A stretch of DNA of 64,000 nt. It comes from Dictyostelium discoideum (taxonomy: Eukaryota). A program made the position numbers and the translations under genes. Below the pieces are notes generated by a model that saw only the letters and a list, made by a program, of their open reading frames with translations, did not search any database and was not told the DNA's origin. The stretch spans positions 1,184,001-1,248,000 of the forward strand of contig CM000153.2 of NCBI GenBank assembly GCA_000004695.1, read 5' to 3'. Shown piece by piece: positions 20,398 through 38,609 of this stretch (position 1 is the stretch's first letter; every line of letters starts with the position of its first letter).

Positions 20398-23300
20398 TTA
20401 TTTTTTATTTGATTTAACAGATTTATATAATTTTAATAAATATTCATTTGAATCTTTGTTATTTAATAAAACATTTTTTAAGAGACCTTCATCATCAAAG
20501 AATTCCATTTCATCTTGGAATTCTTTTAATTCATTTTCGAAACAATTTAATAATTCTTTAACATCTACCTGAATCTTTGTACAATTTGTTGATAAATGAT
20601 TTTTAGTTTCTTGAATCCAATTTTCTTCGGTACATGAGGATGGTTTAATGATTGAATGGAATTTTGATAACAAAGAGAAGAATATTAACCAAGGACGAGT
20701 GATATCGAAAAGTTTATCTTTTGATGGTTCATCTGGAGAACTTAAACCATTCTTTGTATTAGTGGTGAGATAATCAACAAAAGCATAAGCCAATAGTTTT
20801 GTGAGGTAATTGAATTTTTGATTTTCAAATTCTTTTGGTGAATGTAAAAAGATTGAAACCACTAAAAAGTATGGTACATTATCGGATAGCATTTGATACA
20901 TTGAAGTGATTGCAGTTTCCAATGGTAAAGTTGTGAATTGTGCTAAAGTCTTTTCAAATTGTGGACGTCTTAATTGATTGGCAGAGTTACCTCCAACCAA
21001 CTTTTGATCCAATAAAAACATACCAAGTTGGACAAACATTGGTGCAATTCTAATATTACTTTCTTTGCCACCACCTTTAGAATCGGTACTGAAAGATTCA
21101 TCCTTTGCCAAACGAATCAATAAGAATTTGAGATCATGAGAGAGTATACGGAATTTTGGTCCTTCGACACGAGAGATATTGTTGAGATTAACCCAGAATT
21201 TATCAGAGTAGGGAGTGAATGCATCACTATTCATCTTTGGTGGAAGTACAGGGAAAAGACCATTACATTTGGTTTGTTGATTTCTGAGTGCAGCACCTTC
21301 CCATTCTTCTTTTGGTACCTTCATACTTCTATCTGCTTTGGTTGCATCACGATGACAATTGAAATGAATGAAATTGAAATGAGTTACTGTAGTGAAACCA
21401 TAATATAAAGCACCACCACCACCACCTCCACTACTACTTGGGGAGAGAGAAAGTGAAGCAGCGACATTGGTTGTTGATGATGGTGGACAAGTTGTTTCAC
21501 CCACTGATGTTAATGGAATTCTCTTTGAGAAGGTATAGATACCTAATACATCGGTTGGTTTAAATGAATAACCTTCTCTACAAACCATACAAGTGAAACC
21601 TTCATCATCATCCAAATCTTCAATTGAACCTGGAACAACGTTTGCCATAATATGTTTACCTTGTTGAGCTAAACCCAATTGTTTCAACACATCTTCTCTA
21701 TGTTTTTGAGCATGACTTAATTTTTCCATCTTCGATTCCTTACGAGTATCACTTACAATCTTTGAGGTTTTTTCATTGCCTTCAGCGATTGACTCTAATA
21801 AATTCTCAGCTAAACTTCCAATCTTTGCACTAGTACCAGCTGTTTCTTCAAGTATATGAATTCTTTTGATAAGGTTAGATTCTAGAGTCATATTTTGAGT
21901 TGGTTCATGACCCATTGCTAAACCTTTTAATAATACTAAAACGAATGGTAAAGCTGGTTTCTCCAAAGAGGAAAGCCATTCTTGGCTAGTCTTATCACCA
22001 TTTTCAGGGAAGTAATTTAATAAGTAATCAACCAATGATTTAGTGATACCACGCTTAATAATGATTGAACGAATACTTCTACCATTTGAATCTGGACGAG
22101 TATTTTCCATAAGTTTGGTAAAGAAATCAAGATGATAAACATGATTGGTATCTTTTGATTTTGAATCATCAAACTCTTGGAAATTTAAATATGGTGTGAA
22201 AAAGTCAACGAGATAATCCATAATTTCAGTGTGACCATAGGTAAGGAATGGAATAATTCTTGTGATTGCTTGAATGATCTTTGGATTTGACATTACTTGA
22301 GCACCGTTTAATTTATCTAAAAACATATTCATTTGTTCTTGAGCTTCATTGATATCTTTATGATGTGAGAGTGAGGTAGAAGAATTTGAACCACGAAGAT
22401 AATCACGATTTGCTTCGCTAACTACCGATTCAATGATGACCAATAAATGTTCGGAAAGTTCTGGTTGATGGAAAGCTTGTTTTAATTTCTCCAATAATCT
22501 ACCAACAGTATTGAGTGTAAGTAATTTTTGACGATTAATTTTAATCTTACAACAATGGTAGAGTAATTTAATTACTAATTGTGCCAATTCCTTCTCGATT
22601 GAGAAATCATTGATACGTTCAATCATTGAGATCATTGATTCCAAACCACCGCATTCAGCCATAACACTTGTGATTTCATATTCAACTTCTGGATCCTTTT
22701 CTTCAGAGTTATTATCATTAAGAGTTTCAATGATTTCTTCAGTTGCTTCACCATCTAAACCTTGAAGACGATAAACTACATTCATTGGAATATTGATATC
22801 TGCTGTTCTTAATGCTTGTGGACTCTTTTTCCATACTAATTCGTAAACTTTTTTAATTGGTAAATCCAATTTAATGATCTTATTATCGACTAATAACTCC
22901 ATACCATTATCATCATCTAAGAAACTACCTAAATCTAAAGCTTTACAAATCTTATTCTTTACATCTCTCATGAGTGGACCACCAAAGGTATTGGAAGTAT
23001 ATGGGTTACGATTCATTGAACCTCTAATGTATTCCTCTTGAGATGCAGCTTTAAAGAGTATCAATTGATAGATTGGATCTGGTTTGGTTGGACAAACAAT
23101 ATTACAAAGTTGTTCGAAAATAAATATTGGAGTTCTACCATCCGATTGATATTTAGCCAATGCTTTAATATTAGCAGCCATAAACTTCTTATTGTCTTGA
23201 ACAGATTCATTGTTTAGTGATTTCATCAACTCTTGGAGATAACGTACAGAATCCTCGGTTAACTTATTCTTTTGAACGATAACACCACGAAGTGATAAGA

Positions 23301-25073
23301 AAGCATCCAATACCTTTTCTAACATATTATCTTTCTTCATCTTTGCTTTAAGAGTTGGTACATCGAGGAATGATTTAAGTATAGCAACTAAAGTTTTCAA
23401 AACAAAACCTTGTGAAACATCAGTACTAAATGAACCTTCCTTTGATTTGATATGTTCAATCTCCTTGATGATAGCATCACAAATGAATGGAATGAAACCT
23501 TTTACAGCTAAATAAATCTTACGATCTTGAGAGGTTGAGATAAAACTATTGAAAAGTCCGAAAAACTCTGCAGAATATTCACCTGCCTCTGTTGCATTTG
23601 GAAGAATCTTTGTAAGGAGATCCAAGAATTTAAGTGATCTACTATTGCTATTCTTACTTAAAATACCCATCAAAGTGATTATTTCAAGACGAATTGATGA
23701 TGTTGAATTGAATAACAATTTCTCTAACCATTTCTCTTCAAACAATACCTCGAAACTTGATTGAGTTGCATAACCAATACCTGAAGATTGTTGTTGTTGT
23801 TGTTGTTTTCTCTTTTTAACTTGAGCATACCATCTCTTGAAATATTTACTCTTTAATTCATCTTGGCTAAGTGGTTTCAAAGATTTTGATATTTCACCGA
23901 TTGAAGAGTTTACATTGAAATTAGATAAATAGTTTTCATATTTTGATGACCAAGCATTTGCAATTGGATTATCATCACCATCCCATGATTCGTTAGCACC
24001 TGCATTTGAAGTATCATTATCAAAGATTGATAATATGTTTGGATCTTGAGATGAAGATATTGAACCACTACCACTAACACTACTACCACTACTACTTCCA
24101 CTACCACCACCACCATTTTCGCTACCAGTAGCACCAACACCAGATGGAGATGATGAGGAAGAAGATGGTGATAAAATCTTTAAACCTGAAACAGATTCAT
24201 TCAATTGTTGTTGCTGTTGTTGAATTTGTTGTTGAATTTGTTGTTGTTGTAAAGCGATTTGTTGTTGAATTTGTAATTGCATTTGTTGTGGTGAAAGTAA
24301 TGATGATGCAACAGAAAGTGCAATATTATTCACAGTATTTGGTGAAAGTAATGATGATAATGCTTCAATCTTCTTTTCAATGGTTGAGGTTAATGAAGCA
24401 TTAGCTGCTGTTGCTGTTGCTGTTGCTGTTGCAGCCAAAGCAATGGCTTGTTTCTTTGATGATTTTAATTTTTCAAATCTTGTTGCTAATAATTTTTGAG
24501 AGATTTCAAGATCTTTTGCATCCTTTGTAATGAAAGCACCTTTACGATCAAGAGTACATAAATAAATTATGATTTTGAGACATGGTAAAATAATATACTC
24601 TGAAACCACTGGACTTTGAGAGCCACTTGATAAAGCTTTAAAGAATAACTCCATTATGAATGATAATCTTTGTGGCCAAATATTATCAGAGAGTGAGGAA
24701 CATTCTTTCAACAATGAGATTTCACTTGAGACCATGTTTGGAACATCCAATGATGAATAATAACAAAGTGTGTAGTAAATCTTGTCTTTAATCCATTGAT
24801 TAACCATTGAAGTACAATCAATATTTGATTTGGTAAGATAGGATAATGATGATTTAGCCCAACCCTTTGCAATACTCTTTCCATGATGAATATTATTAAA
24901 GAATATTTCTTTTGGTAAACCTTTTTCAATCAAAAGATTCTTAATTGGTGTTAACTCTGAATTTCTACAGAAGGAATTTAATAAACATAAAACCTGTTCA
25001 ATGTATGAATTTGAACAACCATAACATTTATTTTCTTCACGTAAATGAATTGAAACAGGACATTGTCTGGATG

Positions 25074-25109
<36 letters not shown>

Positions 25110-38231: not shown

Positions 38232-38335
38232 TGAGCTGAACTGAATTGAATTGAGAAAATATTGAGATAAAAACGATTTATTATTGATGATGAGAGATAG
38301 AATTGAGATTGAAAATATGAGAATAAAAAGATAAC

Positions 38336-38366
<31 letters not shown>

Positions 38367-38609
38367 AACAACAAATAATTGATAATTACCTTTATCTTTT
38401 TCTTTACCATTAAAAACTATATTGAAGGAAATTGATTCCAATATTTTTGAAAGGAAATAGATTTGATCCAATAACAATTCCTTTGATTTTAATAAGGCGA
38501 GAAGAGGCTTTAAATTTTTAACTATTGTATCTTTTTTCAATAAACCAGTTAATTCTTTAAAATATGTACTAATTTTATCTTCTGGTGGTTGTTTTTCTGC
38601 TTCTCCCAT
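20398..38609 (-). CDS. Giant UBR4/p600/Calossin-type E3 ubiquitin ligase (N-recognin 4 homologue), about 5,800 aa. Five exons: 38609..38390, 38036..37027, 36924..26839 (10.1 kb), 26751..26595, 26390..20398.
   Basis: ATG at 38609 (MGEAEKQPPEDK...). Donors GTAATT, GTTTGT (37026-37021), GTAAGT (26838-26833), GTTTGT (26594-26589). Exon 3 holds a UBR box (CTYTFTKNDYIDQHWYFCYTCGLKFSEGCCSVCVKVCHKGHQVSYSRYSRFFCDCGAGAGKGNPC, about 32000-32200) and a ZZ zinc finger (CDLCNINPITGKRWNCSNCGDFDLCNQCYQ, about 28520-28610). The last exon matches the human UBR4 C-terminus: [83 protein letters not shown], and GFTCMVCREGYSFKPTDVLGIYTFSKRI near the end. The track ORFs 26770..36816, 20398..26307, 37000..38097 and 38154..38609 are all pieces of this gene. 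Confidence 0.85.
26445..26580. repeat. Tandem 14-bp repeat (AACAATTAAAAAAA)n: about 4 copies, then 2 more after a 50-bp spacer. It sits inside a UBR4 intron.
   Basis: acaattaaaaaaaacaattaaaaaaaacaattaaaaaaaacaattaaaaaaaa ... acaattaaaaaaaacaattaaaaaaaa. Confidence 0.7.

Follow-up and report, generated by a model that had tools for sequence, protein, structure and literature searches.

Evidence for a six-exon gene encoding a giant UBR4/BIG-type ubiquitin ligase with a predicted internal ZZ finger in Dictyostelium discoideum

The minus strand of a 64-kb stretch of Dictyostelium discoideum AX4 chromosome 4 (the whole stretch analysed here, termed the window) carries, from position 38939 down to 20398, the single-copy D. 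discoideum gene for a giant ubiquitin ligase of the UBR4/BIG type. An earlier reading of the same DNA (the original prediction) had assembled this gene from four minus-strand open reading frames (ORFs) and described five exons starting at an ATG at position 38609. All four ORFs were recovered exactly, at 20398-26307 (1969 amino acids, aa), 26770-36816 (3348 aa), 37000-38097 (365 aa) and 38154-38609 (151 aa), and the four introns proposed to separate the coding blocks (38389-38037, 37026-36925, 26838-26752 and 26594-26391) run from GT to AG, measure 87-353 nucleotides (nt) and have consistent phases. Splicing of the five blocks yields 17,466 nt, a frame of 5,821 codons in which the only stop is the terminal one, in agreement with the claim that the ORFs join into one protein. 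The exon number and the start, by contrast, require revision: it is very probable that the gene consists of six exons separated by five short, AT-rich GT..AG introns, and that its spliced coding sequence of 17,628 nt specifies a 5,875-aa UBR4/BIG orthologue with a complete E3 module (Table 1).

The window as a whole is very AT-rich (13-32% GC), and the exon regions reach 26-32% GC in a profile drawn at window level, against 7-15% in the four introns named above. Each of the five introns contains an in-frame stop when retained, and the splices are therefore required to connect the ORFs. A retained intron 1 would present a stop after 7 codons, while exon 3, which has no stop at its end, would meet one only 8 codons into intron 3, where splicing restores the long frame. 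Removal of all five introns, with their phases consistent throughout, leaves one terminal stop, and the 3' flank beyond it is A-rich and contains AATAAA motifs. Two variants of this model were considered and rejected. An alternative donor for intron 2, located 15 nt upstream and in the same phase, was ruled out because the orthologues described below keep the 'GKxKD' residues that it would delete. Hidden in-frame introns within the giant exons were likewise ruled out, as the D. discoideum-specific insertions are T/S/N/Q/G/E coding repeats with no runs of F, K, I or Y, which a translated intron would produce.

Relatives of the protein were sought in two ways. A word-index database returned 116 relatives, all of at most 1,523 aa, and those with names were UBR4, BIG or 'purity of essence'; the D. 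discoideum protein was not among them, and full-length UBR4s are apparently absent from this database. An exhaustive HMMER search, using a 306-aa query that spans the junction of exons 3 and 4, retrieved P0129 (5,348 aa, E = 4e-60) and P0130 (5,344 aa, E = 1e-40), both of them giant proteins that match contiguously across this junction at their residues ~300-600. They align with the D. discoideum protein from end to end, with the same domain order and a full-length identity of 54% (P0129) and 50% (P0130), a level suggesting that they probably come from other dictyostelids. Both alignments are gap-free at the junctions of exons 3 and 4, 4 and 5, and 5 and 6, and the single 10.1-kb exon of the original prediction is real, with the orthologues running uninterrupted across its junctions. 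The junction of exons 2 and 3 adjoins a 3-4-residue gap in the orthologue alignment; at its donor side the 'GKxKD' stretch is kept, D. discoideum 'GKEKDK' aligning with 'GKTKDL' of P0129. Identity to the orthologues is 36-52% across exons 2 and 3 (for exon 3, 52% with P0129 and 40% with P0130), and for exon 5 it is 54% and 67% with the two proteins. The C-terminal ~90 residues of P0130 form an unrelated Cys-rich tail, possibly an artefact of its gene model.

Orthologue P0129 also bears on the 5' end of the gene. Between the ATG at 38609 and an AG acceptor at 38724 lie 38 AAT/AAC (poly-Asn) codons with no stop in the frame, and this poly-Asn tract (38722-38616) is tandemly repeated, its periods being 6 and 9 nt. 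Another 168 nt in the 5' direction, the segment 38939-38892 reads ATG-GAC-CCT...TTA-ATG and then GTATGT, encoding the peptide MDPDLLLAIALSESLM; an in-frame stop lies 13 codons 5' of this ATG, and T-runs are found just 5'. The N-terminus of P0129 is MDPDLLLAIALSESLM as well, identical at 16/16 positions to exon 1, whereas the adjoining sequence is only ~50% identical. Additionally, both orthologues have N/D-rich coding sequence at the position of the poly-Asn tract, ahead of a conserved 'YF.EL' block. The five-exon model is short by 54 N-terminal residues, made up of a 16-codon mini-exon and the 38 poly-Asn codons of exon 2, which begins at 38723; four of the five introns had been placed correctly and intron 1 (38891-38724) had been missed.

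An alternative is that translation starts at the ATG at 38609 after all, giving five exons and 5,821 aa, and that the upstream ATG mini-exon and the poly-Asn codons are 5' untranslated region or a chance open frame. Consistent with this idea, P0130 does not have the 16-residue peptide, and the Pfam models of ubiquitin-interacting motifs (UIMs) do not recognise it. The ATG at 38609 is also the first start after an in-frame TAG (38726-38724), and hence the one that a mechanical ORF caller would choose. We nevertheless regard this alternative as improbable. At 50% identity per site, a 16/16 match to P0129 would arise by chance with a probability of ~1.5e-5, and intron 1 combines a GTATGT donor and an AG acceptor with 9.5% GC and a phase-0 join. 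Moreover, the 114 nt before 38609 are an open-frame AAT/AAC repeat whose periods are multiples of three, unlike the flanking A/T homopolymers, and the N/D-rich sequence at the same position in the two orthologues is coding. Finally, the UniProt entry 'Probable E3 ubiquitin-protein ligase DDB_G0283893' is 5,875 aa long, exactly the length of the six-exon product.

Several observations weigh against the six-exon start and the assignment that goes with it. The exon-1 peptide is missing from P0130, which could be an omission from that gene model or a real absence. Following residue 16, P0129 has 11 residues (17-27, VSGYLKVICSQ) with no D. discoideum counterpart, and these may represent intron read-through in the P0129 model. 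All splice junctions are deduced from consensus sequences, reading phase and colinearity with the orthologues. The locus is presumably DDB_G0283893, an identity suggested by the numbering of the neighbouring genes. The giant-gene models of relatives such as P0129 and P0130 may need the same mini-exon correction, and the one paper found to name DDB_G0283893 handles it as an unusually large gene (PMC5052037).

The N-terminal part of the six-exon protein was also compared with the human and plant proteins (residue numbers throughout are those of the six-exon product). A full-length alignment with Arabidopsis BIG and human UBR4, envisaged in the original prediction, proved colinear from residue ~875 to the C-terminus, with D. 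discoideum 875-993 and human 761-875 as its most N-terminal significant anchor, but upstream of this point there was no significant similarity. Indeed, the first ~460 residues (exons 1-3) show similarity only among close orthologues and none that is significant to the human or plant proteins, and the first ~870 have no detectable sequence similarity to the human Armadillo dimerisation domain. A single-sequence search with aa 54-546 matched neither human UBR4 nor plant BIG significantly, a three-sequence profile of the region compared with the human and plant proteins reached a best E of 2.7 with one insignificant colinear patch, and an AlphaFold2 model of exon 3 had a confidence too low for use (mean predicted local distance difference test score, pLDDT, 36.5).

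These results would be compatible with exons 1-3 (38939-37027) forming a separate small upstream gene, in which case the UBR4-type gene would start at an ATG at 36816. Such an arrangement would place the UBR box at ~1,470, somewhat closer than the 2043 of the six-exon protein to where it lies in human UBR4 (~1660) and BIG (~1585), and intron 2 is long (353 nt) and has promoter-like T-runs. We consider it extremely improbable, however, because the sequences of exons 2, 3 and 4 are found in one polypeptide in both giant orthologues, with the HMMER match spanning exons 3 and 4 without a gap, and because exon 3 ends without a stop and the splice restores the long frame. In addition, since the anchor begins at residue 761 of the human protein, ~760 residues should precede it, whereas exon 4 alone supplies ~410. 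According to the original prediction, the model would be refuted if the N-terminal exons did not align with the N-termini of UBR4 proteins; they do fail to align with the human and Arabidopsis proteins, but this is a poor test and does not refute the gene model, since the same exons are present in, and exons 2 and 3 align with, the two giant orthologues.

Table 1. Exons, introns and predicted domains of the UBR4/BIG-type gene, in positions of the window.
Feature	Position	Strand	Description
Exon 1	38892-38939	-	48 nt; ATG plus 15 codons, MDPDLLLAIALSESLM; phase 0; GTATGT donor follows
Intron 1	38724-38891	-	168 nt; GTATGT...AATAG; 9.5% GC
Exon 2	38390-38723	-	334 nt; poly-Asn tract at its start
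Intron 2	38037-38389	-	353 nt; GTAATT...TTATAG; 14.7% GC
Exon 3	37027-38036	-	1010 nt; aa 128-464; N-terminal helical region broken by N/T-rich tracts
Intron 3	36925-37026	-	102 nt; GTTTGT...TAATAG; 8.8% GC
Exon 4	26839-36924	-	10,086 nt; aa 465-3826; helical scaffold, UBR box, ZZ finger, internal UIM
Intron 4	26752-26838	-	87 nt; GTAAGT...TTTTAG; 14.9% GC
Exon 5	26595-26751	-	157 nt; aa 3827-3878 and first base of codon 3879
Intron 5	26391-26594	-	204 nt; GTTTGT...AAATAG; 7.4% GC
Exon 6	20398-26390	-	5,993 nt; aa 3879-5875; TAA at 20400-20398; beta-sandwich/zinc-finger region, PF24079, E3 module
UBR box (zf-UBR)	32011-32190 (aa 2043-2102)	-	PF02207, 30.3 bits (cut-off 25.2)
ZZ finger	28519-28632 (aa 3229-3266)	-	PF00569, 33.6 bits (cut-off 21.4)
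Internal UIM (predicted)	28330-28380 (aa 3313-3329)	-	EYDEELKIAISMSL; PF23625 UIM_2, 21.3 bits (cut-off 21), marginal
UBR4-like domain	25462-25719 (aa 4103-4188)	-	PF24079, E = 8.3e-23, 81.5 bits (cut-off 27)
E3_UbLigase_R4 module	20485-23016 (aa 5004-5847)	-	PF13764, 1060.2 bits, profile 1-809/809
hemiRING	21280-21591 (aa 5479-5582)	-	Residue alignment to human UBR4 9nwd and 8b5w

The predicted product is a genuine UBR4/BIG orthologue, and its gene is an ordinary and expected one within a well-known family. The three parts named in the original prediction, a UBR box, a ZZ finger and the UBR4-type C-terminal module, were supported by a Pfam domain search and by matches to PDB sequences, and the motifs quoted there are present: the 20-letter one at ~aa 3912, CPRCS at 4052 and CREGYSFKPTDVLGIYTF at 5482-5499. 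Among PDB sequences, exon 4 matched Arabidopsis BIG 9qt9 with 483 bits (E = 1e-143) and human UBR4 with 333 bits (E = 2e-98), and exon 6 matched the same two proteins with 1126 and 968 bits, respectively. The UBR box region matched the UBR-box chains of human UBR4 (8j9r, E = 2.8e-20; 8j9q, E = 8.2e-20).

The catalytic module was compared residue by residue with human UBR4 in its native numbering (9nwd) and with a crystal chain of the hemiRING-UZI (8b5w). The human hemiRING has a single-zinc C2HC site formed by C4838, C4841, H4887 and C4890, and a hydrogen-bond network of Y4856, N4884 and N4911 in place of a second zinc site (PMC10873205). In the D. discoideum alignment all four predicted zinc ligands (C5479, C5482, H5554 and C5557) are kept, as are the hydrogen-bond residues Y5497, N5551 and N5582. 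Human Q4910 corresponds to R5581, and an Arg also occupies this position in Arabidopsis (PMC10873205); human Tyr4877 is replaced by Phe. The UZI bundle is kept as well, aa 5542-5852 aligning to residues 4875-5168 of human UBR4 and 151-444 of 8b5w (domain E ~4e-33 to 6e-35), and so is a GGG(K/R)ESN stretch, which may correspond to the non-RING diglycine element of the human protein (PMC10873205). The beta-AB loop of the D. discoideum hemiRING contains an S/G-rich insertion of ~34 residues.

The original prediction put the protein at ~5,800 aa, about 12% above human UBR4. It is indeed larger, but the figures become 5,875 aa and 13% (5,875 versus 5,183 aa). As had been claimed, its size is inflated by poly-T/N/Q/S tracts. 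An entropy mask marked 1,199/5,875 residues (20.4%) as low-complexity, and 524 residues are inserted specifically in D. discoideum relative to the orthologues, all of them in T/S/N/Q/G/E runs. These tracts account for the surplus over P0129 and P0130, which are ~530 residues shorter, the D. discoideum protein being ~10% longer than these close orthologues. Its excess over human UBR4, ~690 residues, is due to the ~20% low-complexity sequence and consists of poly-N/T/Q/S/G insertions typical of this genome.

Classification as UBR4/p600-type was correct at the level of the family, as judged from Pfam and PDB matches, but an internal ZZ finger is not a trait of human UBR4; it is BIG-type. In metazoans the ZZ domain of UBR4 is supplied by the cofactor KCMF1, which is absent outside metazoans, whereas plant BIG contains a ZZ domain of its own and employs DI19 as its pin cofactor (bioRxiv 10.1101/2024.12.18.629163). 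In the D. discoideum polypeptide, the ZZ finger follows the UBR box and precedes the C-terminal module. In the PDB it is matched best by 9lgr, the ZZ domain of BIG (E = 2.4e-8), and by residues 2585-2632 of 9qt9, which lie at the colinear position; the KCMF1 ZZ domain matched more weakly. The acidic residues of CDxC and DFDLC line up with those of BIG. From its sequence, then, the D. discoideum architecture resembles the plant-BIG type with the ZZ finger in cis, unlike the metazoan combination of UBR4 and KCMF1.

Arabidopsis BIG (AtUBR4, 9qt9) is also the best-scoring solved relative overall. The UBR box, internal ZZ finger, beta-sandwich/zinc fingers and E3 module follow one another in the same order in both proteins, which share the Arg in place of human Gln4910. 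They differ in that the D. discoideum protein is ~700-750 residues longer, from low-complexity inserts, has no detectable sequence similarity to BIG over its N-terminal ~870 residues, and carries the 34-residue S/G-rich hemiRING insert. For BIG, DI19 and calmodulin are known as partners and auxin-related phenotypes have been described. Compared with human UBR4/p600 (9nwd, 9d9z and 9qws; 8b5w/8btl; 8j9r), to which it is colinear from the anchor at residue 875 (human 761) onwards, the D. discoideum protein aligns at the C2HC ligands, the Y/N/N network and the UZI bundle, but it has the internal ZZ finger that human UBR4 lacks. Gene structure differs greatly as well: the six exons of the D. discoideum gene contrast with more than 100 in the human UBR4 gene.

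Two peptides raise the question of additional ubiquitin binding. The predicted internal UIM in exon 4 narrowly passes the UIM_2 cut-off and scores 14.5 bits against PF02809, under the cut-off of 21. It is kept in P0129 (IDEELKLAISMSL) and P0130 (YDEDLQRAIAMSL). The alignments with BIG and human UBR4 do not reach it, and a short query of the motif matched only poly-Asn linkers of MBP fusion constructs. By eye, the exon-1 peptide has an LxxAxxxS core, and a search against Pfam, including the UIM models, returned no family at E <= 10; it is 'UIM-like' at most. UIMs are not mentioned in the paper on UBR4 architecture (bioRxiv 10.1101/2024.12.18.629163). It is conceivable, although in our view doubtful, that the D. 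discoideum protein represents a self-contained ancestral form of the E4 ligase, with its ZZ finger in cis and with two putative UIMs, the internal one and the 16-mer of the N-terminal mini-exon, as extra ubiquitin receptors. Under this proposal, the two UIMs would feed pre-ubiquitinated substrates into the arena of the ligase, and the occurrence of the N-degron-reading ZZ domain in cis in an amoebozoan as well as in plants would imply that its transfer to a separate protein, KCMF1, took place solely in the line of descent of animals.

A working scheme for the protein can be drawn by analogy with its solved relatives, for which a ring-shaped dimer that includes calmodulin and a pin cofactor of the KCMF1/DI19 type, and a UBE2A/B-dependent K48 E4 activity, have been defined experimentally (bioRxiv 10.1101/2024.12.18.629163). 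The D. discoideum sequence itself shows a long helical N-terminal scaffold, the UBR box, the ZZ finger, the predicted UIM, the beta-sandwich/zinc-finger region with the PF24079 domain, and the whole E3 module, in which the C2HC hemiRING is intact and the UZI helical bundle is present. By dimerisation, the protein would form a ring-shaped arena, as the human, nematode and plant proteins do. The UBR box would serve as an N-degron reader and the internal BIG/KCMF1-type ZZ finger as a second one, and the two would together choose substrates. The hemiRING-UZI module would recruit an E2 of the UBE2A/B (Rad6) type, and K48 chains would be extended, guided by a UBL, on substrates that are already ubiquitinated and that carry N-degrons or are orphaned quality-control substrates. 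Because the ZZ domain is present in cis, as in plants, a KCMF1-type ZZ cofactor is probably not needed for substrate filtering. It counts against the scheme that biochemical activity, pairing with an E2, formation of the ring and the cofactors are proposed by homology, the UBE2A/B-type E2 and the K48 E4 mechanism being carried over from human UBR4. A literature search found no functional study of Dictyostelium UBR4, and nothing was found under Q54QG5.

As a reference-genome gene of a model organism and a clear orthologue within its family, the gene is already known, and its discovery value is small, the structure and mechanism of the family having been solved in 2024-2025. Only the amoebozoan ZZ-in-cis layout and the perfectly conserved N-terminal UIM-like peptide are mildly novel. 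Of practical use are the corrected coordinates, that is six exons from 38939 to 20398 and 5,875 aa, as ORF-based or prokaryote-style callers would split the gene and overlook its 48-nt first exon. An amoebozoan UBR4 with the ZZ finger in cis, like plant BIG, supports that layout as the ancestral one. D. discoideum is genetically tractable and suited to asking whether such a UBR4 needs a KCMF1/DI19-type pin and whether the UIM-like peptide matters.

The non-coding parts of the gene contain further repeats. Intron 5 includes a perfect 13-nt tandem repeat at 26432-26507 (AAAAAAAACAATT x 4.6 on the plus strand), and homopolymer runs extend over 55 nt in intron 2 (38172-38226) and over ~113 nt in the 5' flank (38992-39104). 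Both kinds of sequence are typical of Dictyostelium non-coding DNA. The intron-2 runs resemble promoter T-runs, and an internal alternative promoter could conceivably be located there.

On its 3' side, the UBR4-type gene faces a convergent multi-exon gene of the ALG6/ALG8 glucosyltransferase family (18435-20316, plus strand), which ends 81 base pairs (bp) from the UBR4-type TAA. The A-rich 81-bp gap between the two stop codons has to accommodate the polyadenylation signals of each gene. On the 5' side lies a small two-exon gene on the same strand (39477-40134, minus), with an ATG at ~40134, an intron with a GTAAGT donor at ~40011-39886 and a TAA at 39479-39477; its second exon gave no Pfam match. 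Since this upstream gene ends at 39477, the 5' end of the UBR4-type gene is confined to 39476-38940, leaving ~540 bp for its promoter.

Farther out, a two-exon gene on the plus strand (43055-43727) encodes a SAP30_Sin3_bdg-like protein of 179 aa, with a GTAAGT..ATAG intron at 43391-43523; a gene for a CMAS-type methyltransferase (45528-46545) comes next. A database search with the SAP30-like protein did not return the exact D. discoideum protein among its matches. The SAP30-like/CMAS pair is syntenic in D. purpureum (L001, 9939-10552), where the UBR4-type gene is not adjacent. On the minus strand at 14222-17082, ORFs of 452 and 427 aa appear to be the halves of a gene for a family-3 (metabotropic glutamate/GABA-B-like) G protein-coupled receptor; the downstream ORF matches 7tm_3 (PF00003) and the upstream ORF has a long poly-Asn tract. 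A scan of the 64-kb window for transfer RNA genes found none. Other ordinary neighbours include a cofilin-domain protein and a GT2 glycosyltransferase, and the ORF at 59225-62032 (plus strand) is an exact match to D. discoideum AX4 DDB_G0283897 / XP_638916.1.

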